DNA from: a bacterium BMS3Abin06
GTDB taxonomy: Bacteria; Nitrospirota; Thermodesulfovibrionia; UBA6902
NCBI GenBank assembly: GCA_002897895.1
Contig: BDSY01000106.1
Location: forward strand, 1,922-65,921
Length of the DNA: 64,000 nt
Direction of reading: 5' to 3'
A program made the translations under genes and the position numbers. The notes beneath the pieces are model-generated. The model worked only from the letters and a program-made list of their open reading frames with translations. It searched no databases and was not told where the DNA came from. This document shows, piece by piece, positions 4,910 to 41,915 of this stretch; within the stretch, counting starts at the first letter, position 1, and each line of letters opens with the position of its first letter.

Positions 4910-4921
4910 CTATATGCCCTT

Positions 4922-19185: not shown

Positions 19186-19240
19186 TTTTGTAGATTGAAC
19201 CCGCAAAAGGCTGAGAGCTGACAACCGAGTGCTGATTATT

Positions 19241-21426: not shown

Positions 21427-21442
21427 AGAAAGAGGGAAAAGC

Positions 21443-21988
21443 ATGAGACCGTCCGAGACAAAACTGCCAAACTTTTATCTTAAACCCGGACAGATATATA
21501 TAGCTGAAAAGCCTACCCTCGTATCAACAGTGCTCGGCTCCTGTATCTCCGTGACCATGTTCAACAGCCGTTTTAAAATCGGTGCCATAAGTCACGGGAT
21601 GCTGCCTTTATGCAAAAGCATGAATTCCTGTGCCGGTGAATGCCATGAAAGTTTCAAATATGTCGACTGTTCTATACGGCGGATGATCAAAATGTTTAAT
21701 ACATACGGCATTAAGTCCGGCGAAATTGAGGTCAAGCTGTTCGGCGGCGCGGATGTTCTCGGTTCTGGAAATGTCGGCAACATCATGTCTGTCGGCGGGA
21801 TGAATATTGAAACAGCCCTGAAGATGATCAGGACAAAAGGCCTCAATATAGTTATCTCCGACGTAGGAGGATTATGCGGACGTAAAATTTATTTCTACAC
21901 ACATACCGGAGAAATCTTCCTGAAACGTCTGGAAAAAATGGGGAAAATAGATTTACCGGATCAGAGAATCGTTAAAGGGGTATATTAA
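21443..21988 (+). CDS. cheD: CheD chemoreceptor glutamine deamidase
   Basis: Start at MRPSETKL after RBS agaggga. CheD motif VLGSCISV...HGMLP. Confidence 0.75.
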   Translation: MRPSETKLPNFYLKPGQIYIAEKPTLVSTVLGSCISVTMFNSRFKIGAISHGMLPLCKSMNSCAGECHESFKYVDCSIRRMIKMFNTYGIKSGEIEVKLFGGADVLGSGNVGNIMSVGGMNIETALKMIRTKGLNIVISDVGGLCGRKIYFYTHTGEIFLKRLEKMGKIDLPDQRIVKGVY

Positions 21989-23056
<1,068 letters not shown>

Positions 23057-23097: not shown

Positions 23098-26007
23098 ATG
23101 CTTTACAATAAGGCGCTCAGATACATCTTTATCGTTTCCTGCGTTATAGCAATAATATATCCGCTGGTCAATATTTACTTTATATTTCCTTTATTCGGGG
23201 AAGTGGTGAATAAAAACGCCGAAGATGACGCTGTGCGCATTGCAAATCTCCTGTCAACAGGGCTCTCTTTAGACAAGGGTGGATTGACAAAAGACTCGGT
23301 CCCCGCGGATTTCCAGGCTAAGGCGGAAGAAATGAAAGAAAAATTGCATATCTCGAAAATCAAGATATTTTCGAGATCCGGGAAGATATTGTTTTCCACC
23401 GACCCCCGGGATGTAGGAAAGGTAAATAAAAAGAGCTACTTTTATGAAATTGTGGCAAAAGGAAATCCCCTCACCAAGATTCTGCAAAGCAATGCCGCAT
23501 CACTTGAAGACCGGATGGTAAATGCCGATGTGGTGGAAACATATGTGCCGGTAATGGCCGGTAACAGATTTCTCGGAGCATTTGAGATATATGACGATAT
23601 TACACTCAAACAACGGATGCTTCACGAGGTGGTACTCCGGTCTTCTGCAATACCCCTGATCCTGATGTTCGGCTTTTTGTTCATAATATTGTTGATTTTA
23701 TTCAGGGCGGACAAAGATATATCCGTTTTCGAGGAAGCCGGGTCAAAGAGATTCAGATCCCCTCTTTATATCATATTAATTATAATTGTCTCAATGTTTA
23801 TTGCCCATTTTGCGGCCATGTTTCTTCTCTCAGGGTTTCCGTCGGCCTCTGATACAGCCCTCTCAATTATGGATATATCCTTATCGACCCTCCTGGTCTC
23901 TCCAGTGCTTTACTTTTTTATATTCCGGCCCCAGGCCATGCATATCTCCTGGCGCAAGAAGGCAGAGGAGGCATTGACGAAGAGCAGGAAAACTCTGAAA
24001 AAAGAAAGGAACAACCTTCGTTCAGCGCTTGATATGTTCTCTAACACAATTAAAGAAGTGGAAGAAAGTAAAGGATTTGAAAATATCCTTTATAAACCGG
24101 TTGAAAATCCTGACATTCCCGTATGCTGGGAGATGAAAAACTGCGGCTATAAGGAATGTCCTGTGCATGGCCGGAGAAATGCAAGATGCTGGCAGATAGC
24201 CCGCACTCACTGCGGGGGAAAAGTGCAGGGACAGTTTGCAATTAAGTTTGGCGACTGTGAGAAATGTGATGTTTATAAAGAGTCTGTCAAAGATCCGAAG
24301 TATGAGATAGGGGAGGCTTTTAATAATATGATGTTTATGTTAGCCGGCACACACTCTGAATTAACTAAAGCGCGTTTTGCTGCAGAGGCTGCCAACCGTG
24401 CCAAGAGTGAATTCCTTGCCAACATGAGCCATGAGATCCGCACACCCATGAATGCAATTATAGGCATGACCGACCTGACCCTTGATACGGACCTGAGCCG
24501 GGAACAAAGGGAATACATTGAAATGGTCAAATACTCCGCCGATTCCCTGCTCAGGTTGTTAAACGATATTCTGGATTTTTCAAAAATCGAGGCCGGCAAG
24601 CTGCAGCTTGAAAAAAAGGACTTCAATCTTCACTCTACACTGGGCAGTATAATCAAAACCCTGTCTGTTCAGGCAAACAAGAAAGGGCTTGAGCTGTTCT
24701 GCCGCATCAGCCCCGATGTCCCTGCAGAGTTGAAAGGCGATGACATACGGCTCAGGCAGATCATTGTTAACCTGGTGGGGAATGCCGTCAAATTTACCGA
24801 TAAGGGGAAGATTATTGTAAAAGTTGAACGCTGCACTTCCGGAAATGGCAATAACGGCACTGACAGGAAGCAGGATGGCCGGACAATCCTCATTCATTTT
24901 TCCGTTTCCGACACAGGCATAGGCATCCCTGCAGACAAACTTAAAAGCATATTTGAGAGCTTTACTCAAGTGAATGGTGTTGCTAACGGAAAACACGGCG
25001 GCACAGGACTCGGCCTGGCCATCTCCAGAAAACTTGTGGATATGATGGATGGAGAAATCCGGGTTGAAAGCGAAGCCGGCAAAGGAAGCGCCTTTCACTT
25101 TACCGCAAGATTCGGCATTGTAAGCAACTCAGTAAAACAAGAGACTTCTTTGCCTGATATTGACGGTGACGGAGGGTACTCATACAGTCGGCACATAAGC
25201 CATGAAGGCAGAAAAACACTCAACATCCTCCTTGTTGAAGACAATGTTTTAAATCAGAAAGTGGCTGCCGGCATGTTAAAAAACCGGGGGTATTCCTTGA
25301 CGCTTGCCGGTAATGGTGTGGAAGCGCTTGAAGTCCTGAAAAAACAGCGCTTTGACATCGTGCTGATGGACATACAGATGCCGGAAATGGACGGGATAGA
25401 GGCTGCACTGGCAATCAGGAACTCGAAGGTCCCCGGCTTTGACTCCCGGGTTCCCATAATAGCCCTGACTGCCCATGCCTTTGCAGAAGACAGACAGCGG
25501 TGTATAGAAGCCGGAATGAATGACTATATTACAAAACCATTTAAAAAGCATGAGCTTTTCAAAAAAATTGAAAGCCTTGTTTTAACCGGGGTTCATGCTG
25601 CTGAGGCTGAATCGATTGAACCTCCGGGCAACGGCGATGTGATATACAGGGCCGAGACGCTGGAACGGCTGGGTGGTGATGAAGAGCTTCTCAGGGAGCT
25701 CTGGGAGATATTTATTGATGACGCCCCGAGGCAGATGGAAATTCTGAAAAAAGCTATAGATGCCGGCGACATTGCCTTGACCGAACGTCAGGCACATTCG
25801 TTAAAGAGCGCTGCCGCCAATATAGGAGCAAATTTAATGAGTGACAAGGCATCCGGATTAGAACTGGCTGCAAGAGACAAAAACCTGAATAATGCCCGTA
25901 TGCTTTATGAAAAACTTGAACATGAATTAAAGAAGGCGCTGAAGGCATTGACAAAAGATGGAATTTATAACCCGGCTGCGGACAGGACAGATAGTGAATT
26001 GAAATGA
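23098..26007 (+). CDS. hybrid sensor histidine kinase (periplasmic sensor, TMs, Cys-rich insert, HisKA, HATPase, REC, Hpt)
   Basis: 969 aa. H-box [23 protein letters not shown] with D in [13 protein letters not shown]-terminal Hpt [13 protein letters not shown]. Eight-Cys segment [16 protein letters not shown]...CEKC. Confidence 0.85.
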
Positions 26008-28739
26008 TATTTAACAGTATTTCCAGAAAAATCATCGCCCTGTTTTTAAGCATTATTCTTGCGTCGGTAATTGTTGTCAGCGCCATAGCCTACCGGATAT
26101 CTTCTTCTAACCTCATGCAGGAGATAGAAAAACATTATATTGACAGGGTTGTAGATATTATGGTTGCAATTGATGAAATCATGTATTCAAAATACAAGCT
26201 CATACAGGATATTGCCGATAATGCGGTCATAAGATCAGGGGACAGCGCTCCCGAGGAGATCAATGCGGAATTATTGAAATACAACAAAAGATATCCTGAA
26301 ATCATGTCCATGTCTTTTTTTGATATGAACAGGATCAGGCTGGCGGATACAAAAGGCATGAACATCGGGAAACAGGACCGGATCATCGGTTACTGGGAAA
26401 GGGCCTTGGAAGGCAGGATAACGGCCGGAGAAGATATAAGAACTGCTGAGGATATTAAGGTTCCCGTTATCTACTTTGCCGCTCCTGTAAAAAATATGCA
26501 GGGGAAACAGTCCGGTGTTGTAGTTGCACGGCTGGTTGCAACAGAAATCAACAGGGAGCTGAAAGAATTGACCATAAACCCGGATATTATGCACATTACC
26601 TTATTTGATAAAGAAAAGAACATCCTGTTTTCCAGTAACAATTATTATAAAGGCAAGGCGCTGAACCGGAAAATTCGTGATTCACTTCCCACCGGGGAGG
26701 CTTTAAAAGGATACACAGGAGCTGTTGTTGAATATGGCTCCGGGCAGGAACACAAGCACCTGACTGTCTATGCCCGTGAGCAAGGCGTAAGAGATTTTAA
26801 AGGCAATGGCTGGTCAATAATCTTATCTCTGGATATGGATCAGGCGATGCTGCCTCTTAAAGAGATGAGGAACAGGATATTTATAGTGTCTTTAATAATT
26901 GCCTCAGTGGCCGGCCTGATTGCCTATCTCGTGACTTTGAGTATTTCCGGACCGATAAAAAAACTGCAGAAGGGGATAGAAATAGTTGAAGGAGGACAAC
27001 CTGATTATGAAGTAAAGGTAAAGAGCAGGGATGAAATCGGCCGGTTGACAAACTCATTCAATAAAATGGTCAATGCCTTAAAAGAGCAGACCGTTGATCT
27101 TCTGGCGTCAAACAGGGCGCTGGAGGAGGAGATATCAGAGCGGATGCGTATAGAGGAAACGCTGATAGAATCTGAAGAGAAATATAAAAGTGTTGTGGAT
27201 AATATCGGCATAGGGGTACTGCTTATAAGCCCGAAACTGGAGATATTGGCCCTGAATAAAAAGATGAGAGAATGGTTCCCGGGCATTGATGTTTTAAAGA
27301 AGCCGGTTTGTTACAGAGTCCTTAATGAGTCCCCGAAGGAAGACGCATCCGCTCATTGCCCGAGCCGCAAGACACTAAAAGACGGACAGACTCATGAATC
27401 AACAACCACCTATCCTGCCGGCAGTGAAACGGTAAACTACAGGATACTTTCCTCTCCGGTTAAGGACAAACATGAAAATGTTATTGCAGTGGTAGAGCTC
27501 TTTGAAGACATTACCGAACGCAGGAAATATGAAGAGGCGCTCAAAAAGGCAAAAGAAGCTGCCGAGGCCGCCAGCCGCGCCAAGAGCGAATTTCTGTCCA
27601 ACATGAGCCATGAGATCCGCACACCTATGAATGCAATCCTGGGTATGACCGAGCTGACACTTGATACTGCTCTGTCTCCGGAGCAAAGAGAATACGTTGA
27701 AACCGTCAAACAATCTGCTGATTCTCTTCTTGCCCTGCTGAACGATATTCTGGATCTCTCAAAAATCGAGTCAGGCAAAATGAAACTTGAAGAGATGGAT
27801 TTCAACCTGCAGACCACAATAGACGGAATAATCAAGACCAATACTTTTCAGTCGCTTAACAAAGGGCTTGACCTGCTCTGTCATATCAACCCTGATGTCC
27901 CTCTGGGTCTGAGAGGCGATGAGCTACGCCTGTGGGAAATTATTGTCAATGTGTTAGGGAATGCTATCAAGTTTACCGAGAGAGGCAGGATTATCCTGAA
28001 GGTTGAGCGCCGGACTTCCGGAAACGGCAATGAAGATCAGGACAGTCAGACCGTTTCCCTTCATTTTTCCGTTTCCGATACCGGCATAGGCATTCCTGAA
28101 GACAAACTTAAAATAATATTTGAGAGCTTTACCCAGTCGGATGGTTCAAGCACCAGAAAATACGGCGGGACAGGACTCGGTCTGGCTATCTCCAAAAAGC
28201 TTGTCAATATGATGGGTGGAGAAATCTGGGCTGAAAGCGAACCCGGGAAAGGAAGCACCTTCCACTTTACCGCTGTATTCGGTATTAGCCATAAAGCGGT
28301 AGAACAAGAGCCCCCTTCACAGGATACCGGCGTTGAGACCGAACCTTTCACAAAGAGGCTTAATATTCTTCTTGCTGAAGACAATATTTTAAATCAAAGA
28401 CTGGCAACACGCATGTTAGAGAGAGCGGGACATGCCGTGGAAGTTGCAAACAACGGGCAGGAAGTGCTTGAAGCTTTGAAAAAACAGCGCTTTGACCTCG
28501 TGCTGATGGATGTGCAGATGCCGGAAATGGACGGGATAGAGGCTGCGCGGATAATCAGAAATTCCGGGGGCAGCGGCTTTGACCCTGCAATTCCGATAAT
28601 TGCTGTAACCGCCCATACTTTTAAAGAGGACAGGCAGCGCTGCCTCAAGGCCGGAATAAATATATGCATTACAAAACCTTTTAGAAGGCAGGAGCTTTTA
28701 GCGGAGATTGAAAGGTTTGTTTCCAGCCGGGACAACTAA
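26004..28739 (+). CDS. hybrid sensor histidine kinase (Cache-like periplasmic domain, HAMP, PAS, HisKA, HATPase, REC)
   Basis: 911 aa. ATGA overlap with the previous gene. HisKA, HATPase and REC segments are 85-90% identical at the DNA level to those of the previous gene. Confidence 0.85.
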
Positions 28740-28771
28740 TGATTTATAACAAATGAAAAGGGAGGCGCAAA

Positions 28772-29170
28772 ATGAGAGTTTTAATAGTTGAAGATGACTT
28801 TACCAGCCGCAAGCTGCTGCAAAAGTTCCTTTCTCCTTATGGTGATTGCGATATTGCGGTTGACGGCAAAGAGGCACTTGAGGCATATAAAATGTCCTGG
28901 GTGAAAAGTGAACCATATGATCTTATCTGTATGGATATCATGATGCCCAATGTAGACGGGCAGGAGGCGCTGAAAAAAATCCGTGAAATAGAAAAGGATA
29001 TGGGCATCAAAAACCATGATGAGGTGAAAGTAGTCATGACTACAGTCCTTGATGACCCGAAAAACGTTTTTAAGGCATTGAACAAGGGAGGAGCTACATC
29101 TTATATCATTAAACCCATCAGCAAACAAACGCTTCTCGAAGAGCTGCGCAAGCTCGGTTTGATCATATAA
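28772..29170 (+). CDS. single-domain response regulator (CheY-like)
   Basis: 132 aa. VLIVEDD; D in LICMDIMMP; T in VVMTT; K in YIIKP. RBS gggagg. Confidence 0.8.
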   Translation: MRVLIVEDDFTSRKLLQKFLSPYGDCDIAVDGKEALEAYKMSWVKSEPYDLICMDIMMPNVDGQEALKKIREIEKDMGIKNHDEVKVVMTTVLDDPKNVFKALNKGGATSYIIKPISKQTLLEELRKLGLII

Positions 29171-29200
29171 GGGGGGTAAAAAATAAAATTCAGGTTTTAT

Positions 29201-30550
29201 TTGGAAATTATGAATAACGATAAAAGAAATATAGAGATTTCATATGATGGACTACTTATTCTCAACTTGCCGAAATTGAAGCGCATATTGCCTCTATATA
29301 TCGCCCTTATAGCTGTAACAACCTCAATCTCAGTGTATTTTTTTGACGAATATTTTCATGTTTTATTTCTCCCATATACTTGCATGGTGGAGCATCTCAT
29401 GTGGGTTTTTATCACAGCGGGGTTGTGCCTGTTCACTATTATAAAAATATCTGCAACCCCCTTGACGAAAATAACTGATAGAGAACAAAAAATAATAGTT
29501 GAGTTCATGGCGCAAACCGAATATCAAAAAACACGGACCGGCAAGCTGTCACAGTATTTTGGTTCCCAGCTGAAATTAGATGCCCTTACCAGGGCACACC
29601 TGGAAAATATAGTCAGTGAAACGGATTCCGCAGCCCTCCGGATTATTACACAGGCACAGGATATAGACCTCTCTATGACAGAACTGATCAATGTGCTTGC
29701 GTCGTTGCACAGCAAGAGTGAAGAGCTGGCAAAAATATCTAATATGACGATTATGGAAAACAGGCAGACCATTGTTCATTTACGTGAATATGTTGATACG
29801 CGTCTGGAGGAATTGGAAAATGATCATAAAAGGGCTATTTCTTTATCCGAAAACGCCGGATCCATGATAAAACTGGTGGATCTGCTCAGAGATATCAGCG
29901 ATAAGACCAATCTCCTTGCGCTCAATGCGGCAATCGAAGCGGCCCGGGCAGGGGAAGACGGAAGAAGCTTTGCAGTAGTGGCCGCAAAAGTGCGGGAACT
30001 GTCTATCCAGTCGGAACACGCGGCAGCCCAGGTCGGGAAGGCCATTACGGGCATGGCAAAAGAAATCGAGTCACAATTCACCGACAAGTTAGCTAAACAA
30101 ACAAATGAAACAGAGAAAGAACTGCTTGGTAACCTTGAATTACAGCTTGTTAATCTCGGGAACAGTTACGAGCAATTAGACGGCTTTAACAGACAGGTTC
30201 TTGAGCAGGTTGAGATAAGCAGCCGGAAGGTAGCGCAAAAGATTATGGAGCTGCTGGCAAACATACAGTTTCAGGACATAACCAGACAGCAGATCGAACT
30301 GATAATCCGCTGCCTTTCCGATATAGACATCTACATTGAAAATCTTAAAGTCTATGTTAATAAAGCTGTCCCGTGTGATACAAACTGTATTATCCCTGAC
30401 TTTGATATAGATGATATATGCAAATATTATACGATGAAAAAGCAGCGTGATATACATTATGAGGCAACGAGTGGACTCGTAAATCGAGAGTTGATACAGG
30501 AGGTTGGAAAAACCGATAAGTCTAATGGAGATGATATTACTTTCTTTTAA
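29201..30550 (+). CDS. MCP-like signalling protein (2 TM, no sensor domain)
   Basis: [45 protein letters not shown] motif shared with the MCP at 11918. Cys-containing C-terminal tail. Confidence 0.75.
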
Positions 30551-30599
30551 TCAGGGATGGGTAATGATTATAAAAGAGTATCTTTTTACGGAGGGTTAA

Positions 30600-30968
30600 A
30601 TGGCTAAGACAATAATGATAATTGATGATTCGGCATCAATACGAATGGTGGTGAGTATAGCTTTAAAAAAGACAGGCTATGAAGTGATAGAAGCAAAAGA
30701 CGGCAAAGACGCGCTGGGCAAGATGACAGGGCAGAAGATTCATCTTATACTCTGTGATGTTAACATGCCGAACATGGATGGGATATCCTTTTTAAAGTCA
30801 ATCAAACAGAATCAGAATTATAAGTTTACTCCTATTATCATGCTCACCACAGAGTCTCAGGAAGCAAAAAAACAGGAAGGCAAGGCAGCAGGCGCAAAGG
30901 CCTGGGTTGTAAAACCTTTTAAGCCGGAGCAAATGCTTTCGGCAATAGAAAAGCTGGTACTGCCGTGA
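30600..30968 (+). CDS. cheY: CheY-like response regulator
   Basis: 122 aa. Paralog of 13108 ([35 protein letters not shown]). Confidence 0.85.
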   Translation: MAKTIMIIDDSASIRMVVSIALKKTGYEVIEAKDGKDALGKMTGQKIHLILCDVNMPNMDGISFLKSIKQNQNYKFTPIIMLTTESQEAKKQEGKAAGAKAWVVKPFKPEQMLSAIEKLVLP

Positions 30969-30984
30969 TGGAAGGGTGAATGTT

Positions 30985-31281
30985 ATGAAGGTTAACGCAG
31001 AAAAAAATAATGGCTTATGCAGGTTGCAGATAGAAGGTGAAATGACTATTTCTGCTGCGACAGAGCTGAAAAAGAGCCTTCTCGATAATCTTGCAAATTG
31101 TTCGGAACTTGAGATAGACCTGTCGCAGGTCAGCGAGATGGATACAACAGGTTTTCAACTTCTGTTTCTGGTTAAAAGGGAGGCCTCTCTTTTAAATAAA
31201 GTTTTTCGAATTATCTCACACAGTCCAAAAACATTGTCGGTACTGAAACTGTACAACATGAAAGATTTTTTTGAAAGTTGA
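30985..31281 (+). CDS. STAS-domain protein
   Basis: MKVNAEKNNGLCRLQIEGEMTISAATELKK...DLSQVSEMDTTGFQLL. MDTTG aligns with the SpoIIAA MDSSG phospho-site region. Confidence 0.7.
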   Translation: MKVNAEKNNGLCRLQIEGEMTISAATELKKSLLDNLANCSELEIDLSQVSEMDTTGFQLLFLVKREASLLNKVFRIISHSPKTLSVLKLYNMKDFFES

Positions 31282-31288
31282 AATTTCT

Positions 31289-33286
31289 ATGAAAACAGAC
31301 CCTGTATTACAGACATTTATCATCGAAAGCAGTGAAAATGTTCAGGAGATGGAGAATTCCCTGCTCCAGCTCGAAACCTCTCCTGATGATGAAGATACCA
31401 TAAACGCCTTGTTCCGGGCAGCCCATACAATCAAAGGCTCAGCCGGCATTGTGGGCATTGATAATGTTGAGAGATTTACACATATAGTAGAAAATGTCCT
31501 CGAACAGGTTCGTCTGGGTGAGATCAAGGTAACCGGTGATCTGATCGGACTCCTTCTGAAGTGTTGCGACCATATAGGGCGTCTTGTAGATATTCTGAGT
31601 GAAGGGGAAGATAAAGCCGGCAACCCTGATCTTGAATTCGAAGGACAATCCATTATGGAACAACTCACGGCTTACATAGTGGCTGATAAGGATGACCTGC
31701 CCTCCGCGCAAAAGGATACACAGGGAGTTGCCGGGGAGCGGAAAGAAATTTCATCAGACAACAGAATGGTTGAAACCGGAAACTGGCATATATCCCTGAA
31801 ATTCAGCCGTGATGTGCTGCGAGACGGCATGGACCCTCTTTCATTTATAACCTATCTTTCAAAACTTGGTGAGATTGCCGGCCTGACCACCCTGCATGAT
31901 GCCATACCTGATGCCGGGGAAATGGATCCTGAAAGTTGTTATCTCGGTTTCGAGATAGACTTCAGGAGTGATTCCGACAAACAAACTATTGAGGATGTAT
32001 TTGAATTTGTACAGGAAGACTGTGAAATCAGCATACTGCCTCTTCACAGTGAAAACAAAGCAGATCCCCCCGTGGTAGGCGCAGCGCCGGAGAAACAAGA
32101 ACAGATCAAGGCCTTCAAGGCAAAAGAAGCTAAAACCATCCGAGTTGATACAAATAAACTCGATCAACTGATAAATATGGTAGGAGAGCTGGTGATTGCC
32201 AATGCCAATATAGATCAGCAGGCACAGCGCATAAGAGACAATAGTTTGCTTGAATCCGCCTCTGCTTTGTCGAGGCTGGTTGAAGATATCCGCGACAGGG
32301 CCATGAAAGTCCGCATGGTACCGATAGGCGAAACCTTTAACCGTTTCAAAAGAGTAGTGCGGGACATCAGCCGGAACACGGGCAAGGATATCGAACTGGT
32401 AATCAGCGGAGGCGACACTGAACTGGATAAGGGCGTTATAGAAAAGATCGGGGATCCCTTAATGCACTTAATTCGTAATTCAGCGGACCACGGAATTGAA
32501 GAGGCTGATGAGCGTCTTGCGCTAAACAAACCGGGCAAAGGCACCATCCGTCTCAATGCCTTTCAAGAGACGGGCAGTATAGTCATTGAAGTTTCTGACG
32601 ATGGGAGGGGACTGAACCGCAGCAGAATAATGAACAAGGCAATGGAACGCGGCATAATTAATCCCGGTCAAAGCCTCTCTGACCGCGAGATGTACGACCT
32701 CATATTTGAACCCGGATTTTCCACTGCCCAAAAGGTGACCAAAGTGTCTGGACGCGGTGTAGGCATGGATGTGGTGAAGCGCAATATAGAGACCCTTCGC
32801 GGCTCGGTTGACGTGGAAAGCCATGAAGGCGTCGGCGCCACGGTACACATTCGCCTGCCGCTGACAATGGCAATTATTGACGGCTTTATGGTGGGGGTGG
32901 GGCCGTTATTTTATGTAATTCCGCTGGACATGGTTGTTGAGTGTCTTGAACTGTCAGAGGCAGACAGGCAGGCATCGCTCAAACGGAATTATGCCGATCT
33001 ACACGGTAAAGTCCTGCCGTTTCTGCGGCTCAGAGACCTCTTCAATGAACAGAATGGCCGGCCCCCCTACGAGCATGTTGTGGTTGTACAGTATGCAGGC
33101 CGGAAGACCGGACTGGTAGTAGATGAATTGCATGGAGAGGTACAGGCTGTTATTAAATCACTGGGCAGGGTTTACAAAGACATAAAGGGGGTTTCCGGAG
33201 CGACAATCCTGGGCGACGGTACGGTAGCGTTAATACTGGATGTGCCAGGCCTCGTACAAACTGCAAAGAGAATGAGAAAAGTTTAA
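31289..33286 (+). CDS. cheA: CheA histidine kinase (second copy)
   Basis: Hpt FRAAHTIKGSAGIVG. HLIRNSADHGIE; DDGRGL; GRGVGMDVV. C-terminal CheW-like domain. Confidence 0.85.
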   Translation: MKTDPVLQTFIIESSENVQEMENSLLQLETSPDDEDTINALFRAAHTIKGSAGIVGIDNVERFTHIVENVLEQVRLGEIKVTGDLIGLLLKCCDHIGRLVDILSEGEDKAGNPDLEFEGQSIMEQLTAYIVADKDDLPSAQKDTQGVAGERKEISSDNRMVETGNWHISLKFSRDVLRDGMDPLSFITYLSKLGEIAGLTTLHDAIPDAGEMDPESCYLGFEIDFRSDSDKQTIEDVFEFVQEDCEISILPLHSENKADPPVVGAAPEKQEQIKAFKAKEAKTIRVDTNKLDQLINMVGELVIANANIDQQAQRIRDNSLLESASALSRLVEDIRDRAMKVRMVPIGETFNRFKRVVRDISRNTGKDIELVISGGDTELDKGVIEKIGDPLMHLIRNSADHGIEEADERLALNKPGKGTIRLNAFQETGSIVIEVSDDGRGLNRSRIMNKAMERGIINPGQSLSDREMYDLIFEPGFSTAQKVTKVSGRGVGMDVVKRNIETLRGSVDVESHEGVGATVHIRLPLTMAIIDGFMVGVGPLFYVIPLDMVVECLELSEADRQASLKRNYADLHGKVLPFLRLRDLFNEQNGRPPYEHVVVVQYAGRKTGLVVDELHGEVQAVIKSLGRVYKDIKGVSGATILGDGTVALILDVPGLVQTAKRMRKV

Positions 33287-33296
33287 GGAGGTAAAA

Positions 33297-34190
33297 ATGA
33301 ACAGGCTGACCGACAGCGAATTAATACAAGAACTTAATAAAAGATTTAAGGAAAACGAGGAAGCGCTTAACGCCCTGAGGGTAATGACGAAAAAGCTTGA
33401 GAAATTGAACAGGAAACTGCAGGAGGCAGAGTCATTAAAAAGCAATTTTCTTTCAAACATAAGGAACGAGATAAACAACCCGCTGACGTCCATTATATGC
33501 ATGTCAAAAGAACTTGCAGGAGAAACATTAGACAGCGAAACAGTTTCATCAATAGCCGGCATGATACATTCAGAGGCATTTAACCTTGATTCCCAGTTAA
33601 GGAATATCTTTGCTGCCGCAGAGTTCGAAGCAGGAGAGGCAGCCCTGAGTATATCCAAAGTGGATATGGATATGCTTATAAACAGTACGATTGAATTATT
33701 AGATCATAAAGCGGATAAGAAAAGAATAAAGGTGAATTATATGTCGCTGGATGAGTCAGGGGATGAAACTTATTTTAACACAGATTCTGAAAAAGTCCAG
33801 ATCGTCATTTTTAATCTCCTGGGCAATGCCATTGAATATAGCCATGAAGAAGGACAGGTGGAATTAAAGGCATGGAGACATGAGGGGCACATGAATATCT
33901 CTGTGAAAGATCATGGGATGGGGATGGATGTACCAGACCAGGAAATAATTTTTGACAGGTTCAGACAGCTTGACACAGGCGTTGCAAAAAGTCATTCAGG
34001 TCACGGCCTTGGCCTCAGTATAATAAAGGCCGCAATCGAATTGTTATATGGAACGGTTTCCATTGAATGTGTTAAGGACAAGGGGTGTGTTTTTACAATA
34101 TCTATACCTGAGGCAGAGAGTGAGATGGAAGCATATACCATTTCAAATGACGGCAATGAGTTCATTTTCGAAGGGGTGGAAGAATTTTAG
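33297..34190 (+). CDS. soluble histidine-kinase-like protein with His-less H-box (H->N) and an intact HATPase
   Basis: H-box position reads FLSNIRNEINNPLTSI (compare AHEINNPL in 20122 and 36144). N/G boxes NLLGNAIEYS, DHGMGMD, GHGLGLSI are intact. Confidence 0.7.
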   Translation: MNRLTDSELIQELNKRFKENEEALNALRVMTKKLEKLNRKLQEAESLKSNFLSNIRNEINNPLTSIICMSKELAGETLDSETVSSIAGMIHSEAFNLDSQLRNIFAAAEFEAGEAALSISKVDMDMLINSTIELLDHKADKKRIKVNYMSLDESGDETYFNTDSEKVQIVIFNLLGNAIEYSHEEGQVELKAWRHEGHMNISVKDHGMGMDVPDQEIIFDRFRQLDTGVAKSHSGHGLGLSIIKAAIELLYGTVSIECVKDKGCVFTISIPEAESEMEAYTISNDGNEFIFEGVEEF

Positions 34191-34201
34191 GAGGGGGGTG
34201 T

Positions 34202-34684
34202 ATGGAGACAAAAGAAGCCGTAAAAACACATTTTCTGCATCCCGGAGGGATTTTTGCCGATAAAAGCGAATGTCTTGTAACTACCATTCTCGGTTCATGT
34301 GTGTCGGTTTGTCTATTGGATCCTGTGTTGAAAATAAGCGGGATAAACCATTATATGCTTGCTTTATGGAATGGAGAAGGTCTGCCCTCTCCCCGGTATG
34401 GCAATATTGCAATAACAAAACTGATCGAGAAGATGCTTGGCCTCGGGAGTAAAAAACAGGATCTAAGAGCAAAGGTCTTCGGCGGTGCATCTTTAATCCA
34501 GAGTTCGAGCGGCTTCTTAAATATCGGCAAGCGTAATATTTTAATAGCTGAGGATATGCTGCGGGATGAAAATATACAGATAATAAGCCGTGATGTTGAG
34601 GGGAATGCCGGACGCAAGCTGATTTTAAATACAAAAACAGGGAGTGTTTTATTAAAGAAAGTCATAAAAAAACAGATAAGATGA
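34202..34684 (+). CDS. cheD: CheD-like deamidase (second copy)
   Basis: 160 aa. TTILGSCVSVCLLDP...HYMLALW. Confidence 0.7.
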   Translation: METKEAVKTHFLHPGGIFADKSECLVTTILGSCVSVCLLDPVLKISGINHYMLALWNGEGLPSPRYGNIAITKLIEKMLGLGSKKQDLRAKVFGGASLIQSSSGFLNIGKRNILIAEDMLRDENIQIISRDVEGNAGRKLILNTKTGSVLLKKVIKKQIR

Positions 34685-34754
34685 TTTTTCCGATGGGATG
34701 TAAATCCATTAACCGGCAAAAAGAAAAAAGCTGAAAACAAAGAGAGATTAAGTT

Positions 34755-35840
34755 ATGCATTCAAAAGATAACAAAGGACAATCTGGAATAGATCCTGATA
34801 ATGTAATGAAAGATTTATCAAATATGCGCCAGGGGATCCGTACACTCATGAATACTATAACCGGTATGACCGAGCTAATCCTTGATACGGACCTGACACA
34901 GGAGCAAAAAGAAAACATTAAAATTACCAGGCAATCTGCCGACTCTCTCCTTGATCTGATAAACAGTATCTTGGATATTTCAAAACCCGGCATCGGCCAT
35001 GAGTCGATAACACAGCGCCATGCTTCAGAGAACAGTGGCGTTGAGGGCGAATTTTCCACAAAGAAGATTCATATCCTTCTTGCCGAGGACAATGTCCTGA
35101 ACCAGAAAGTAACTGTCCGCATTTTAGAGAAACAGGGACATTCCGTGGAAGTCGCAGCCAACGGCAAAGAAGCGCTTTATATCCTGGGGAAAAAGCATTT
35201 TGACCTTGTGCTCATGGATATCCAGATGCCGGATATGGACGGGATAGTAGCCACACGGATAATCAGGAAATCAAAAGACGCGGGCATTGACCCTGGGATT
35301 CCGATCATCGCCCTGACCGCCCATGCCTTTCAGCGGGATAAAGAAGAGTGCCTGAAAGCTGGAATGAACGGTTATATTACAAAACCATTTAAAAAGCAGG
35401 AACTTCTCAGTAAAATTGAACGGCTTGTCTCAGGTAATGGCTCTGCTGCCGGGGTTAAAACAACTACAGTCTCATACGCCGGTGATGTAGTAGTAGACAG
35501 GGTAGAGTCCCTGTCACGGCTTGACGGTGATGAAGAACTTCTCCGGGAACTCTGGGAGATATTCATTGATGACACTCCCGGGCAGATGCAGGCTCTCAAA
35601 AAAGCTATAGATACCGGCGACTTTGTAATAGTGGAACGTACAGCACACTCGCTAAAGAGCGCTGCCGCCAATATTGGCGCAAATTTAATGAGGGCTGAGG
35701 CATTCAGTATCGAGCTGGCCGGGAAATATAACAATATAGATAATGCCCGTATATTATATGAAAAGCTTGAATATGAATTTAAAAGGCTACTGGAAACACT
35801 TACCGGCCTGCTCAGTATATATCATAAGGTCCATCATTAA
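34755..35840 (+). CDS. REC-Hpt phosphotransfer protein with a degenerate HisKA remnant (H->Q) and no HATPase
   Basis: N-terminus [21 protein letters not shown] aligns with [20 protein letters not shown] (D in [12 protein letters not shown]). Hpt [16 protein letters not shown]. About 80% DNA identity to the REC-Hpt part of 23098. Confidence 0.75.
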
Positions 35841-36143: not shown

Positions 36144-37418
36144 ATGGCCGATATGACCGGACGTAGACAGGAGGAAGAGAGCGGGAAGAATGTGGAAGAG
36201 GCACTGCGGAAAAAAGAGAGGCAGCTTGCAGCCTCCCAGAGGGTCGCCCGTCTCGGCAGCTGGGAGTGGGATATTGTCAACAACAAGATAACCTGGTCTG
36301 ATGAGCTTTACCGCATATTCGGCTTAAAGCCGCAGGAGTTTGAAGCGACTTATGAGGCATTTTTGAATGTGGTGCATCCGGACGACAGGGAAAAACTTGA
36401 CAGTGCGGTAAAAAAGTCACTGAGCGATAAAAAGCCTTATCACGTTGATGCCCGCATTATTCGCCCGGATGGGTCGGAATGGGTGATGGAAGCACGCGGA
36501 GAGGTAACGTACGATAAATCCGGCAACCCGCTTTTAATGGGGGGCACTGCCCAGGACGTCACAGAACGCAAACAGATAGAGGAAGACCTGCTCAGACACC
36601 GCAAAGAGCTGTCCCTGTTAATAGAAGATAAAACTTCTGAACTGAAAGCAGTCATTGAACTTCTCCAGGACGAGATCGCGAGGCGCAGGACTGTTGAGGC
36701 GGAAGCTGTACGCGCCGGCCACCTGGCAGCGCTCGGTGAATTAGCTGCGGGTGTGGCCCATGAAATCAACAACCCCATTAACGGCATTATAAATTATACC
36801 CAGATACTGGCAAACAGGAGCAAAAAGGGAAGCGAGGAACACGATATTGCCAATAGAATTATAAAGGAGAGCAACCGCATTGCCGGCATTGTCAGCAATC
36901 TCCTTTCATTTGCCCGCGACAGGAAAGACGAAAAAATTCCAACCGGAATTCAGGATGTATTGTCAGACTCGCTTGCCCTTATCGAAACACAAATAAGAAA
37001 AGAGGGCATCAGGCTCAAGGTCGACATTCCGTCAAATCTGCCCGCAGTCTCTGCCCAGCCGCAGCAGCTCGAACAGGTATTTTTAAATATAATAAGTAAT
37101 GCACGCTATGCCCTTAACCAGAAATATCCGGGAGCAGATGACAATAAAACCCTTGAAATCCTTGGAGAAAAAGCAACTTTAAACAATAGCCGGCATATAC
37201 GCATAATATTTCATGACAGGGGGACAGGAATCAAAAATGAAATACTTGATAAAATAATAAACCCGTTTTTTTCAACCAAATCCGCTGACAAGGGTACAGG
37301 ACTTGGGTTAAGTATCAGCCATGGTATTATAAGTAACCATGGAGGCAAACTTATCATTGAAAGTATCGAAGGAGAGTTTACGAGAGTAATAATTGAACTA
37401 CCGGCCATGAAGAAATGA
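36144..37418 (+). CDS. cytoplasmic PAS histidine kinase
   Basis: 424 aa. PAS (LGSWEWDIVNNKITWSDELYRIFG). H-box VAHEINNPINGI. HATPase NARYAL, DRGTGI, GTGLGLSIS. Confidence 0.85.
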   Translation: MADMTGRRQEEESGKNVEEALRKKERQLAASQRVARLGSWEWDIVNNKITWSDELYRIFGLKPQEFEATYEAFLNVVHPDDREKLDSAVKKSLSDKKPYHVDARIIRPDGSEWVMEARGEVTYDKSGNPLLMGGTAQDVTERKQIEEDLLRHRKELSLLIEDKTSELKAVIELLQDEIARRRTVEAEAVRAGHLAALGELAAGVAHEINNPINGIINYTQILANRSKKGSEEHDIANRIIKESNRIAGIVSNLLSFARDRKDEKIPTGIQDVLSDSLALIETQIRKEGIRLKVDIPSNLPAVSAQPQQLEQVFLNIISNARYALNQKYPGADDNKTLEILGEKATLNNSRHIRIIFHDRGTGIKNEILDKIINPFFSTKSADKGTGLGLSISHGIISNHGGKLIIESIEGEFTRVIIELPAMKK

Positions 37419-37560: not shown

Positions 37561-39261
37561 ATGTCCAGGATTTTAGTTGTCGACGACGAAGAAAGCATTC
37601 GTTTTACATTTGATAGTTTTCTCTCGGATGAAGGGTATGAGGTGACCACTGCCGCAGACTACGATGAAGCCATGGGCAGGCTGCTTGAAAAGGATTTTGA
37701 TTTGATATTCATGGATATCGTTTTAGGCGGGAAGACAGGAATCGATCTCCTGCAGGAAGTAAGGAAGAGGGAACTTCACTGTCCTGTAGTCATGATAACA
37801 GGATATCCTAATGTTGAAACAGCGTCCGGCGCTCTCCGGTCCGGTGCCTTTGACTATATATATAAACCGGTAAACCAGGAGACCCTGCTTCATACAGCCG
37901 TCATGGCATTGCAGTACAAGACCCTCCAGGATGAAAACGAGAAATACCGCCTGAATCTTGAAGCAATTTTCAGGAGTGTAAAAGATGCCATCATTACAGT
38001 AGATAAAGATATGGTAGTGCTTGAAGTTAATGAAGCGGCTGAAAATATTTGCGGCATTAATCGCAGCTTTATCGGCAAGACCCTCGGCGCCTTTCAGACA
38101 GACTGCATTTATAAATGTCTTGATACCCTCAGAGAAACCATCACTAAAAAAAAGGCGGTTGAAGTATATCGCACTGAATGTATACATAATGGCCGGTTCA
38201 GGCAGGTTGTATCAATAAACACATCCCCTCTTTTAGACAGTAAGGGCGAATTCTCCGGCGCTGTCATGGTTGTGAGGGATGAAACCCGCCTGAATGATCT
38301 CGAGCGCAATCTGCGGGAACGCCGGCAATTTCATCATATTATCGGACAGAATAAAACCATGCAGAAAATTTACTCGCTTATAGAAGACCTGGCCGATGTG
38401 CAAACCACGGTACTGATTACCGGTGAAAGCGGAACCGGCAAAGAACTGGTTGCTGAAGCAATTCACTACAAGGGTATACGAAGCAGCAAACCCCTGGTAA
38501 AAGTAAACTGCTCGGCCCTGTCTGAAAGCCTGCTTGAAAGCGAACTCTTCGGCCATGTGAGGGGAGCATTTACAGGGGCTGAGAAAGACAGGACAGGCCG
38601 CTTTCAAAGGGCGGACGGCGGGACCATCTTTCTGGATGAAATAGGTGATCTCTCTCCGGGGATGCAGCTGCGTCTACTCAGGGTAATCCAGGAAAAGGAG
38701 TTTGAGCGTGTAGGAGACTCTACCCCTCTGAAGGCGGATGTTCGTGTTATTGCTGCCACAAATCAGGATCTGGCGGAAAAAGTCAGGCTTGGCGAATTCA
38801 GGGAAGACCTCTATTACCGCCTGAAAGTCGTTGAACTGGCATTACCGCCCCTCAGGGAACGAAGGGACGATATACCGTTTCTGACAGATTATTTTCAGCA
38901 GAAGTTCAACAACAAATTCAATAAAAATATTATAGCTTTCTCTCAAGAAGTCCGGAAGAGGTTTATGGATTATGCCTGGCCCGGCAATGTCAGAGAGCTT
39001 GAACATGCGATCGAGCATGCATTTGTCACAGCACACCAGAATACCATAACTGTTGACCGGCTTCCCCTGAGCTTCCATGAACTTGCGGAAGAAATTACCC
39101 CGTTGACAAAACATGAGACGGAATCAGGCCGTGACACTCTCCTGGATGCACTGAAAAAGACCGGATGGAACAAATCCAAAGCAGCCCGCCTCCTGGGTAT
39201 AAACGTACGGACGATTTACCGGAAAATCGAAAAGTACAATATTAAGACAGAAGAAATATAA
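37561..39261 (+). CDS. sigma-54-dependent transcriptional activator (REC-PAS-AAA+-HTH, NtrC/Fis family)
   Basis: 566 aa. REC with D in IFMDIVL. Walker A GESGTGKE. GAFTGA motif. ESELFGH. C-terminal Fis-type HTH. Confidence 0.9.
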   Translation: MSRILVVDDEESIRFTFDSFLSDEGYEVTTAADYDEAMGRLLEKDFDLIFMDIVLGGKTGIDLLQEVRKRELHCPVVMITGYPNVETASGALRSGAFDYIYKPVNQETLLHTAVMALQYKTLQDENEKYRLNLEAIFRSVKDAIITVDKDMVVLEVNEAAENICGINRSFIGKTLGAFQTDCIYKCLDTLRETITKKKAVEVYRTECIHNGRFRQVVSINTSPLLDSKGEFSGAVMVVRDETRLNDLERNLRERRQFHHIIGQNKTMQKIYSLIEDLADVQTTVLITGESGTGKELVAEAIHYKGIRSSKPLVKVNCSALSESLLESELFGHVRGAFTGAEKDRTGRFQRADGGTIFLDEIGDLSPGMQLRLLRVIQEKEFERVGDSTPLKADVRVIAATNQDLAEKVRLGEFREDLYYRLKVVELALPPLRERRDDIPFLTDYFQQKFNNKFNKNIIAFSQEVRKRFMDYAWPGNVRELEHAIEHAFVTAHQNTITVDRLPLSFHELAEEITPLTKHETESGRDTLLDALKKTGWNKSKAARLLGINVRTIYRKIEKYNIKTEEI

Positions 39262-39644: not shown

Positions 39645-39863
39645 ATGAATTCTCATATAAATAGTAAATTGTGCCCTTTTGTTAAAAAACCGTTTACTGA
39701 TTGTTACTGCTTTAACCTGACCAGTAGAGACATTAATTCGGCAATACATTATTGCAGCAGTGATTTCAAATCATGTGATATCTATAAAAGAGGGTCAGAC
39801 CGGCAAGAATTCCCCCCTCCCTCTGGTCGAAATGAGAGGCAAGGAGCCTTATGGAAAAAATGA
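39645..39863 (+). CDS. small Cys-rich hypothetical protein (paralog of 6562)
   Basis: MNSHINSKLCPFVKKPFTDCYCFNL...HYCSSDFKSCDIY. RBS gggaggg lies 9 nt upstream of this ATG. Overlaps the STAS gene by 13 bp. Confidence 0.35.
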   Translation: MNSHINSKLCPFVKKPFTDCYCFNLTSRDINSAIHYCSSDFKSCDIYKRGSDRQEFPPPSGRNERQGALWKK

Positions 39864-40189
39864 ACTTTACATTTGAACAATTCGGCAATGTAGGGATATT
39901 TAATCTGACCGGAGAGCTGACTGCAGAACATGAGGATGAATTATACCTGCTCCTCATGAGGGCAATACACAGTGACGGGCGTTCAGTGTTGAACCTGAAA
40001 AAAGTCACGAGAATTGATCTTACATGTTTAAAATTGCTCGAAAAAGCCTGTTGCGCATCGATCCGGCTGAAAAACGCTATAATTCTGACCGAACTTCCAA
40101 AGCATTACTTATCAGAATTATTTAATCTCAGGACTGCTGATAGCATTAAGACCGAACAGCTTGCGAATCACGGTAAAAGCGCTGTTTAA
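39851..40189 (+). CDS. STAS-domain anti-sigma-factor antagonist-like protein
   Basis: 112 aa. GIFNLTGELTAEHEDELY...IDLTCLKLLEKAC resembles STAS/SpoIIAA. No clear phosphorylatable Ser/Thr at the aligned position. Confidence 0.75.
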   Translation: MEKMNFTFEQFGNVGIFNLTGELTAEHEDELYLLLMRAIHSDGRSVLNLKKVTRIDLTCLKLLEKACCASIRLKNAIILTELPKHYLSELFNLRTADSIKTEQLANHGKSAV

Positions 40190-40365: not shown

Positions 40366-41868
40366 ATGGCAGAACAGTCAGAGTATACAGGGCTTAAAGA
40401 CAACATATACACCGACAGTATAACAGAGGAGGCTGAAAACTCTGATCGCGGGACAAGAAGGGTTGTCCTTATGGCAAACTACTCTGCCGGAGACCCGATA
40501 AAAATCTATCTCAGAGACATGGAATCACTCCCCCTTCTGAGCAAAGAGGGCGAGGTGGAGATTGCCCGGAAAATAGAAATTGAGAAAGAAAAAATAGCCG
40601 GGTTTGTTTTTAAAGCTCCTTTTGTCTTTGAACAGATACTTGATTTTCCACATTTATTAAAAGGGGGGGAAGCGACGATAAACAATATTTGCATCATCGG
40701 TAAAGATATGTCCGATACAGACAAGGCAGATATTCTGGAAGAATTCTTAAAGACAGTCAGGTCACTGAAACATCTTATTCAAAAAAGAAACTCTTATATG
40801 CAGGAACCAGCCGATAAAAAACAGTGCAGGAGAAACGCAGAGACAATAAAGGCCCGGATAGAGAAAAACAATATTAAAGTAGTTAATAAAATTTCCGCCC
40901 TTCATCTCAAGGTAAAATTAATCGAGGGTTTTATATCCCAGTTTAAAAGACTGGCAGCCCTTTATATCAGCATAGTCAGGGAAACAGACAATATCCGGGG
41001 GGATGAAACCGGCACATTCCATACTAATTACATATTGCTTAAGAAAAAAATGGCGACTATAGAATCAGAACTCGGGCTTGAAGGAATTGAAGTGGAAAGG
41101 GCGTTAAACTCAATACAAAACAGTGAACGAGAGATTAATGAAGCAAGAAAGATTCTCACGGAGTCCAATCTAAGGCTTGTAATGAGCATAGCAAGGAAAT
41201 ACACAGGCAGGGGGCTCGCTTTAGCCGACCTTGTCCAGGAGGGCAATATCGGCCTCATGAAGGCTGTTGACAAATTCGATTATAAAAAAGGCTATAAATT
41301 CAGCACATATGCTACCTGGTGGATTAAACAGGCTATTACACGGGCGCTTGCGGATCAGGCAAGAACCATAAGGCTTCCTGTTCATATGATAGAAACCATC
41401 AACAGGCTGACACAGGTGTCAAAAGAACTTACACAGGAACTCGGCAGAGAGCCCGAGATAGAGGAAATTGCAAAACAGATGGAAATTCCCGTTGAAAAAA
41501 TCAGGGCAACTCTCAGGATATGCAGGGAACCGGTATCATTGGAGACTCCCATAGGAAACGACGAGGAGAGTCATCTGGAAGACCTTATAGAGGACAAGGC
41601 ATCGCTTATTCCCCTGGATGCCGTCATACAGCAGGAGCTGAAGACGCAGGTAAGAAAGGTTATAAATTCTCTCACCGGAAAAGAGGCTGAAATTATTAAA
41701 AAACGTTTTGGCATTGAAGAAGGCCACTCACAGACCCTCGAAGAAGTAGGCAGACATTTCAAAGTCACACGGGAGCGGATAAGGCAATTAGAAGGAAAGG
41801 CCATAAGAAAATTAAGACATCCGCTGAGAAGTTATTCCCTTAAACTTTTCCTGGAGAAAAATATTTAA
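40366..41868 (+). CDS. RpoD-like sigma-70 factor, paralog B
   Basis: 500 aa. [61 protein letters not shown]. Region 4 [27 protein letters not shown] gggggg. Confidence 0.85.
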
Positions 41869-41915
41869 AAGAATAGAAGTTGAACACTTCCCCCCCTCCC
41901 TTTATAATTACTGTC

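Follow-up and report, generated by a model that had tools for sequence, protein, structure and literature searches.

The 64,000-nucleotide stretch analyzed here (the window), from the bacterium BMS3Abin06 (contig BDSY01000106.1), carries two chemosensory gene clusters, and the second of them raises a question: are two of its proteins, both related to histidine kinases and both without the histidine that such enzymes phosphorylate, remnants of a redundant system or working parts? One of the two, 33297 (proteins are named by the position at which their gene begins), has Asn in place of the phospho-acceptor His and keeps an ATPase domain; the other, 34755, has Gln at that position and no ATPase domain. 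An earlier note, made from the sequence alone, described the cluster as "stripped down and partly degenerate." We show here that 33297 is a member of an ancient, tightly conserved, cross-phylum family of proteins of about 300 amino acids (aa), of which the His-to-Asn change is the signature. We use the short name psHK for this His-less kinase-like protein and its relatives. The family appears to be a functional, so far undescribed component of bacterial chemosensory systems rather than a product of decay.

Domain calls for the window proteins come from Pfam scans, with further matches through NCBIfam and PDB. They bear out the gene order and the domains that the note had given for positions 28772 to 35840, as well as its statement that no cheW, cheR, or cheB lies between these positions. 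The features of this region are as follows:

28772-29170, + strand, stand-alone REC, 132 aa (Pfam Response_reg, E 2.6e-20; Asp, Thr, and Lys kept)
29201-30550, + strand, short membrane methyl-accepting chemotaxis protein (MCP), 449 aa (Pfam MCPsignal, E 2.7e-20; a weak CheZ match besides)
30600-30968, + strand, CheY (REC), 122 aa (57% identical to the cluster-1 CheY, 13108)
30976-31281, + strand, STAS protein, 101 aa (Pfam STAS_2 and STAS)
31271-33286, + strand, CheA, 671 aa (Pfam Hpt, H-kinase_dim, HATPase_c, and CheW-like)
33297-34190, + strand, psHK, 297 aa (HisKA 28.2 bits, cutoff 26.9; HATPase_c 83 bits)
33465-33467, + strand, codon of Asn57 in psHK, at the position of the phospho-acceptor His
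34202-34684, + strand, CheD, 160 aa (Pfam CheD, E 3.7e-27, 95 bits)
34755-35840, + strand, 361-aa protein with a DHp remnant (His to Gln26), a REC domain (Asp155), and an Hpt domain (His298), without a CA domain (Pfam HisKA 43.4 bits, REC, and Hpt)
34830-34832, + strand, codon CAG of Gln26 in 34755, at the His position of the DHp remnant

The His-to-Asn change is the signature of a cross-phylum family

The H box of 33297 reads FLSNIRNEINNPL. In an alignment with WalK (PDB 5c93), fvsnvsHElrtPLts of WalK lies over flsnirNEinnPLts of 33297, with Asn57 at the position of the His, so that the substitution proposed earlier withstands a careful comparison. The resulting motif is N57-E58-I-N-N61-P62-L63. 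By the definition of a functional HisKA sensor kinase, what 33297 lacks is the phospho-acceptor His (Asn57). The dimerization (DHp) hairpin and the catalytic ATPase (CA) domain are both present, with N, G1, F, and G2 boxes that are invariant or nearly so, and the AlphaFold2 model agrees; N61 supplies the Thr/Asn at His+4 of the H-E/D-x-x-T/N motif.

The AlphaFold2 model (mean pLDDT 81) has a canonical DHp+CA core. Residues 6 to 74 form a helix in which an N-terminal coiled coil runs into DHp helix 1, helix 2 spans residues 80 to 112, and a standard CA domain (residues 119 to 271) with a flexible ATP lid is followed by a disordered C-terminal tail containing a conserved GNEFIFE..F. The top Foldseek match of the model is DivL (4q20; E 6.7e-19, TM score 0.86 on the target), and the next are HK853-RR468 kinase-receiver complexes. 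RetS is found among both the sequence and the structure matches.

A family database search at a threshold of E <= 1e-10 matched 2549 proteins, and among the best 120 of these nearly all are about 300 aa long and 48 to 100% identical to 33297. Alignments of 28 and 92 family members show no variation at N57, E58, N61, and P62, within the N, F, and G2 boxes, or at a terminal Phe; the G1 residues are nearly invariant (at least 90%). A scan of one genome per species yielded at least 589 loci, the best 80 of which gave 69 alignable family proteins; 68 of the 69 have Asn at the His position, one frameshifted open reading frame (ORF) has Tyr, and none has His. The residue at His+4 (N61) is likewise Asn in 68 of the 69. 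Of the best 150 matches in an exhaustive profile search of 1.84 billion cluster representatives (50% clusters), 131 are family-sized. The His position is occupied by Asn in 128 of these and by His, Cys, and Ser in one each; a C-terminal Phe is present in 96 of the 131.

His occupies the acceptor position in a single family-sized representative, P0261 (309 aa; FLSNIKHEINNP), which could be a revertant or a member in the ancestral state. Cys is found at this position in P0328 and Ser in P0381.

According to source labels, psHK hosts include Nitrospirota, Desulfuromonadales/Geobacter, other "Deltaproteobacteria," Magnetococcales, Bacteroidota (Cytophagales, Flavobacteriia, and Prolixibacteraceae), Holophaga, and Chthoniobacteraceae; one metagenome bin carrying psHK is labeled Alphaproteobacteria and another Deferribacteres. 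Cultured carriers are Holophaga foetida, Fulvivirga, and Agaribacillus, and the Geobacter loci seen here come from metagenome-assembled genomes (MAGs). NCBIfam contains no model specific for the family. Current annotation names psHK proteins ordinary sensor kinases ("HAMP domain-containing histidine kinase," "PhoR"), and the exact window proteins, on record from BMS3Abin06, a Nitrospirae MAG, bear the annotations PhoR and BarA. A full-text literature search, with Wuichet and Zhulin 2010 outside its coverage, found no description of the psHK family, of the His-to-Asn change, or of an obligate pairing with cheD.

Three other views of 33297 were considered and rejected. As the excised kinase half of the parent of 34755 it would be expected to resemble the hybrid kinases 23098 and 26004, to which it is only 26 to 28% identical. 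It is not a close paralog of the cluster-1 REC-histidine kinase (REC-HK) 20011 either, with 25% identity in the ATPase domain only. Receptor mimicry was suggested by a CheD substrate-like motif (E/Q-E/Q-x-x-A-S/T) in the N-terminal helix (LQESEA), in which the Gln/Glu pair is unconserved across alignment A1.

Pairing of psHK with cheD

In every locus whose contig continues, cheD lies directly downstream of psHK on the same strand. This adjacency was evaluated over 66 loci: 57 were counted by script, 5 more are adjacent and had been missed through ORF-start calling, 3 are contig ends, and 1 is frameshifted. The gap between the two genes has a median of 2 nucleotides (nt) across loci, and in the window cheD follows 11 nt after the psHK stop codon. 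All nine independently annotated contigs that carry psHK show the same pairing. CheA is encoded in 30 of the 35 well-flanked loci (at least 8 kb on either side) and STAS in 14; in 4 of them psHK and cheD stand alone, with no other che gene.

The pair occurs in three arrangements. In Nitrospirota and the delta lineages the order is MCP-CheY-STAS-CheA-MCP-CheW-CheR-psHK-CheD-CheB, in Bacteroidota it is CheY-CheA-CheW-MCP-CheR-psHK-CheD-CheB, and in the third psHK-CheD is found by itself, for example between dnaN and gyrB in Ca. Magnetominusculus. The order dnaA-dnaN-psHK-cheD-gyrB, in the neighborhood of the replication origin, is seen in Ca. Magnetominusculus (L003 and L007; L-numbers denote genome loci) and in a further MAG (L002), with gyrA after gyrB in L003.

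The note had regarded CheD as retained despite the absence of cheR and cheB. Because cheD adjoins psHK in all evaluable loci, CheD is not a leftover; it travels with psHK as a unit. CheD 34202 has the CheD domain, with NCBIfam CheD models matching below their equivalog cutoffs, and it contains the segments TTILGSCVSVC and GINHYML, which presumably hold the catalytic Thr, Cys, and His.

Two candidate Rosetta-stone fusions of psHK and CheD, L046 10001-11380 (459 aa) and P0243 (464 aa, from a concatenated query), were rejected as frameshift artifacts or pseudogenes. In both, Arg/Gly/Pro-rich out-of-frame sequence replaces part of the ATPase domain and continues into the cheD frame. A natural fusion of another kind is found in the cultured organism Holophaga foetida DSM 6591 (L061 9437-10819), where a REC-psHK protein with the Asn motif FLSNVRNEINNPL is followed by cheD. 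In cluster 1 of the window, the slot between cheR and cheD that is usual for psHK is filled by REC-HK 20011, which has an intact AHEINNPL and no Pfam HisKA match at E <= 1e-4. Together, the Holophaga fusion and the cluster-1 REC-HK tie this slot to receiver domains.

Published schemes of che gene order, among them the F-class orders drawn for Campylobacterota, include within some clusters a gene K, labeled "histidine kinase," and a gene S for STAS (PMC9239204), and stage-1 F7 clusters are described as carrying STAS and a Ser phosphatase (PMC7184735). In the text searched, K is treated as a generic kinase, with no mention of a His-to-Asn change or an obligate pairing with cheD.

CheD is common in chemosensory systems without CheC, in which the control of CheD and the removal of CheY~P are poorly understood. 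For such systems psHK is a concrete cross-phylum candidate partner that combines a kinase fold, an intact ATP site, and a phosphatase residue with the lack of a phospho-acceptor.

Possible roles of psHK

Our preferred but tentative reading is that 33297, a HisKA protein without kinase activity, binds a phospho-receiver or removes its phosphate and cooperates with CheD at the receptors, in functional analogy to the CheC-CheD pair. The partner of CheD in Bacillus and Thermotoga is CheC, a CheY~P phosphatase, and their complex is modulated by CheY~P; the pair was reportedly the subject of a study by Chao et al. in Cell in 2006, cited in PMC2577667. Lacking the His, psHK would be unable to autophosphorylate on His. 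The Asn at His+4 is kept though the His is gone, and we infer that the protein retains both the HisKA surface and the Thr/Asn residue that catalyzes the dephosphorylation of phospho-receivers. Most likely it would bind or dephosphorylate CheY~P, or else a different phospho-receiver (that of CheB, for example). It would then act with CheD on receptors, taking the part that CheC plays in Bacillus and Thermotoga. Bound nucleotide probably determines its conformation, and the C-terminal tail, which is conserved, acidic, and ends in Phe, probably serves as a docking peptide. If the proposal is right, psHK would add an auxiliary component to the chemotaxis parts list and would be a natural histidine kinase fixed in the kinase-off state.

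The biochemistry behind this proposal comes from HisKA enzymes in which the H-E/D-x-x-T/N motif was dissected: the acidic residue is needed for kinase activity only and the Thr/Asn for phosphatase activity only (PMC3510030). CrdS, whose HEIxNP is of the same H-box subtype as NEINNP of psHK, remains active as a phosphatase when its His is replaced (H371A), with CrdA~P having a half-life of 2.6 min versus 0.7 for the wild type and 53.5 without kinase; N375A abolishes phosphatase activity, and E372 is required only for kinase activity (PMC3510030). In both CrdS H371A and the EnvZ His243 substitutions, loss of the His leaves the phosphatase largely intact, and the Asn or Thr at His+4 is essential (PMC3510030). 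These are laboratory mutants of bifunctional kinases, whereas the His-less state of psHK is natural and fixed across the family. CrdS belongs to a chemosensory pathway of Myxococcus (Che3).

The likeness to CheC-CheD of Bacillus subtilis and Thermotoga maritima consists in the genetic coupling of the deamidase CheD to a second protein, in the residues expected for CheY~P phosphatase chemistry, and in the position of the pair within or beside the adaptation genes (cheR - x - cheD - cheB). There is no homology: CheC has the CheC/CheX/FliY fold, whereas psHK has a HisKA DHp and a GHKL ATPase with a conserved ATP site, and its interaction with CheD is putative. Pfam gave no CheC or CheX match for 33297, and the resemblance to CheC/CheX/FliY is functional and syntenic only.

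Several observations weigh against the proposal. In some kinases, such as PleC with H610A, loss of the His abolishes phosphatase activity (cited in PMC3510030). His+1 is Gln or Lys in a few members of the family and His+4 is Asp in one, and no genuine psHK-CheD fusion was found. An invariant ATP site is not obviously needed by a pure phosphatase or scaffold and is explained only weakly by a model in which the nucleotide is a conformational cofactor; its conservation could reflect real phosphotransfer to another acceptor. Finally, the CheZ-like QFQDxxxQ of the short MCPs, if active, could already supply CheY~P hydrolysis.

The short MCP 29201 has a conserved hairpin tip, the motif QFQDITRQ, a C-terminal region rich in Cys, and an ITFF tail at its end. 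Of the 14 ORFs that match short MCPs at >60 bits, 11 contain the motif, which is invariant in the 12-sequence alignment A4. Among the short MCPs of the window (29201-30550 and 11918-13126) and their orthologs in L001, L005, L006, L011, L013, L014, L016, L021, L086, and L087, the invariant form is QFQDI(T/V)RQ(Q/R)IE, and most of these receptors share the Cys-rich C-terminal region and the conserved ...ITFF C terminus. The motif has the spacing of the catalytic Asp143 and Gln147 of CheZ and might form a site for CheY~P hydrolysis on the receptor itself. Homology of the short MCP to CheZ was rejected, all matches being sub-threshold (Pfam, 24.5 and 17.3 bits; PDB 1kmi, E = 0.5; NCBIfam).

A different possibility, which we regard as somewhat unlikely, is that psHK is a pure pseudokinase scaffold of the DivL type, which senses CheY~P or CheB~P by binding without hydrolysis and allosterically controls CheD or CheA. 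This overlaps with the phosphatase proposal, the sole difference being the catalysis of hydrolysis. DivL of Caulobacter is a HisKA pseudokinase that keeps the HisKA+CA core and its fold with the phospho-acceptor His replaced; it is the best structural match of 33297 and also a sequence match, and it binds phospho-DivK. The unusually strong conservation of both DHp helices and the REC-psHK fusion in Holophaga would also suit a scaffold. The best-conserved residue after the Asn, however, is the Asn at His+4, a catalytic phosphatase residue that is not obviously required for binding alone. DivL also differs from psHK in having Tyr rather than Asn at the His position and in sharing 29% sequence identity with it, and it is a large, membrane-anchored, multi-PAS cell-cycle protein, whereas psHK is about 300 aa long, soluble, without a sensor domain, and coupled to cheD. 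Decay of both 33297 and 34755, as kinase remnants turning into pseudogenes in a redundant second cluster, is a far less credible account. It would fit the loss of the phospho-acceptor His from both proteins and of the ATPase domain from 34755, the restriction of full-length 34755 homologs to this lineage among database and related-genome matches, and the state of the slot after cheD, with nothing there in L086 and a plain REC in L088. For 33297, decay is excluded by the cross-phylum spread, invariant motif, conserved length, and cheD synteny of the family. The reading frame of 34755 is intact, its REC and Hpt domains are complete and under purifying selection in comparison with L089 (dN/dS of about 0.04 for the REC and 0.2 for the linker plus Hpt), and its DHp scaffold is 51 to 63% identical to those of its paralogs, with only catalytic residues changed. 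The independent existence of an unrelated CA-less DHp-REC-Hpt protein with an intact His (P0149) shows that this architecture is viable.

We also considered, and disfavor as unlikely, the idea that 33297 is an active GHKL kinase that phosphorylates a non-His acceptor, namely Thr57 of the STAS protein (or CheD or an MCP), in the manner of RsbW/SpoIIAB and with a link to a partner switch for an RpoD-like sigma factor. Despite the lost His, the N, G1, F, and G2 boxes show little or no variation, and, like RsbW/SpoIIAB and the CrsR-CrsA system, psHK is a GHKL ATPase without a phospho-acceptor His that is encoded close to STAS proteins and a sigma factor; the island described below is flanked by genes for both. 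In an alignment with hand-entered reference sequences of SpoIIAA and RsbV, STAS 30976 has Thr57 where SpoIIAA has its phosphorylated Ser58, and Thr or Ser is found there (MD[TS]xG) in 11 of 11 orthologs of the cluster-2 type. The 64-kb window contains no HATPase_c_2-type kinase or PP2C phosphatase, and ties between chemosensory clusters and a STAS/anti-sigma partner switch are known (PMC9855816; PMC7184735), an example being Shewanella Che1 with its link to CrsR/CrsA, a partner switch for RpoS (PMC9855816). Against this, the constant partner of psHK is cheD and not STAS, as the 14 STAS-containing loci among the 35 and the four lone psHK-cheD pairs show. RsbW-type proteins have HATPase_c_2 without a DHp, whereas the ATPase of 33297 is of the histidine-kinase type (HATPase_c_2 reaches 27.3 bits, cutoff 27.4, compared with 83 bits for HATPase_c) and sits on a full HisKA DHp. 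Phosphorylation of STAS would leave the invariance of E58 and N61 in the DHp unexplained, the conserved residues being those of HisKA phosphatase chemistry. At the phosphosite, the cluster-1 STAS and STAS 39851 have Leu. In L001, a CrsR-like REC-PP2C (SpoIIE)-HATPase_c_2 protein is encoded beside the psHK-cheD and STAS cluster, and L011 has a similar gene (by similarity) in the same place; such a protein is a more conventional kinase/phosphatase for STAS than psHK. Because the window contains no gene of this type, the idea could still apply to this genome, and the family-wide pattern is unexplained by it. A broader version, in which the CheD-coupled His-to-Asn family is an active, ATP-using, HisKA-derived enzyme that phosphorylates Thr/Ser of STAS, CheD, or a receptor, seems to us at least as doubtful. 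An ATP-using psHK of this kind would represent a new class of bacterial protein kinase derived from a two-component kinase, and would connect receptor arrays directly with a partner switch that governs an RpoD-like sigma factor.

34755, the two clusters, and the surrounding island

The description of 34755 as a HisKA remnant with Gln for His and no HATPase proved accurate. Where its paralog 23098 has SHEIRTPMN, 34755 has RQGIRTLMN, with the changes His to Gln26, Glu to Gly27, and Pro to Leu31. Residues 2 to 77 align with residues 419 to 496 of 23098 (DHp, 51%) and residues 103 to 350 with 706 to 952 (REC-Hpt, 60%), and the intervening residues 497 to 705 of 23098, the ATPase domain, have no counterpart. 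The DHp is 63% identical to that of 26004 and covers positions 6 to 63 of 66 in Pfam HisKA. Having neither an H-box His nor a HATPase match, 34755 is no hybrid histidine kinase; as a REC-Hpt relay protein it is complete, with D155, Thr, and Lys kept in the REC and His298 of the Hpt in AHSLKS. A Shine-Dalgarno-like GAGAG lies 8 nt before its ATG. Judging from these alignments, 34755 is a lineage-specific duplicate of the hybrid kinases of the 23098/26004 type, minus the sensor and CA domains and the H-box His, Glu, and Pro. Degeneracy describes only how 34755 was derived from a hybrid kinase, in that the ATPase domain was lost along with the catalytic His and Glu, and does not extend to its intact frame or to its complete REC and Hpt.

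Most likely, 34755 would serve as a dimeric REC-Hpt phosphorelay intermediate that uses its DHp for dimerization or docking, possibly onto its full-length paralogs. RetS and RcsD are noncanonical kinase or relay proteins with a nonfunctional kinase core, and RetS forms a heterodimer with GacS. In 34755, as in these, catalytic elements are gone from a module of kinase origin, relay through an Hpt or REC domain remains, and heterodimers with paralogs are possible; 34755 differs in lacking the entire CA domain while keeping DHp-REC-Hpt.

A tract of about 5.9 kb (window 29250-35100), from the MCP through CheD to the DHp remnant and the REC start of 34755, is 99.3 to 100% identical to L089. Its flanks are 87 to 95% identical, and the synonymous divergence (dS) is 0 to 0.02 inside and 0.28 to 0.47 outside, a pattern suggesting that the core module was recently recombined or transferred, or else that an assembly is chimeric. 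Purifying selection on the DHp remnant was considered in view of the comparison of P0121 with P0242 (0 changes in residues 1 to 78 and 17 elsewhere) and rejected: the remnant lies inside this 99 to 100% identical, recently exchanged tract, so the zero changes say nothing about selection.

All genes from about 7.8 kb to 46.5 kb of the window are carried on the + strand. By Pfam, the two paralogous chemosensory clusters stand head to tail, with cluster 2 beginning 32 nt past cluster 1; identities between them are 64% for the sigma factors, 57% for CheY, 49% for CheA, 40% for the short MCPs, and 34% for CheD. The features of cluster 1 and of the region downstream of cluster 2 are as follows:

10019-11551, + strand, RpoD-like sigma factor
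11918-13126, + strand, short MCP
from 13108, + strand, CheY
from 13463, + strand, STAS
from 13913, + strand, CheA
from 16277, + strand, long MCP
18625-19185, + strand, cheW (Pfam)
19229-20125, + strand, cheR (Pfam)
20011-21426 (likely start 20122), + strand, REC-HK with intact His (AHEINNPL)
21377-21988, + strand, cheD of cluster 1 (Pfam)
21989-23056, + strand, cheB (Pfam)
23098-26007, + strand, hybrid histidine kinase with Hpt (Pfam)
26004-28739, + strand, hybrid histidine kinase with dCache-HAMP-PAS (Pfam)
36144-37418, + strand, PAS histidine kinase, downstream of the core
37561-39261, + strand, NtrC-type sigma-54 activator
39851-40189, + strand, second type of STAS
40366-41868, + strand, RpoD-like sigma factor (64% identical to 10019-11551)

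The genes cheW, cheR, and cheB all lie in the complete cluster 1, 7 to 10 kb upstream of cluster 2 on the same strand, and cluster 1 could supply all three proteins to cluster 2. The claim that all REC domains keep their Asp, Thr, and Lys held up, with equivalents of E. coli CheY D13, D57, T87 (Ser in CheB), and K109 present. CheA 31271 has P1 (His52 in AHTIKG), P3, P4, and P5, all above the Pfam cutoff, and is 49% identical to the cluster-1 CheA across P3-P5. DosM and triple-CheW, which mark the F9 class (PMC9321776), were not seen in the Pfam scans of the window.

The core MCP-CheY-STAS-CheA-psHK-CheD (29201-34684) recurs in the related genomes L086, L087, and L089, in which psHK is 79%, 75%, and about 99% identical to 33297, respectively. 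Because this compact core recurs in relatives, the stripped-down layout is a stable arrangement. That half of the earlier description therefore stands, and "degenerate" does not apply to 33297, a member of a conserved family.

The core sits in a large signaling island. Upstream of it lie pairs of a hybrid kinase and a REC; downstream come a PAS kinase, an NtrC-type activator, a STAS protein, and an RpoD-like sigma factor. The order psHK-CheD-REC-HK-NtrC-...-sigma70 is found in L088, as in the window, and genes for a PAS histidine kinase and NtrC also follow the core in L089. Tandem pairs of a hybrid histidine kinase and a single REC precede the core in L086, L087, L088, and the window (23098-29170), which suggests a multi-input phosphorelay feeding the chemosensory module. 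REC 28772-29170 is probably the partner of the upstream hybrid kinase 26004-28739 and probably lies outside the chemosensory core, since such pairs recur before the core in L086, L087, and L088 and this REC is outside the tract shared with L089.

The whole island is bracketed by the two RpoD-like sigma factors of about 500 aa (10019-11551 and 40366-41868), and sigma-factor control may be its output. STAS 39851, which lacks a phosphorylatable Ser, precedes the second of them, and in L088 a similar sigma factor lies downstream of the NtrC-type gene. Beyond the island, window positions 41880-44531 encode an 883-aa protein with DHH/DHHA1, CBS, and poly(A) polymerase/CCA-adding head domains, and the minus strand at 60-6295 carries a run of ketoacyl-synthase, FabA, and reductase genes.

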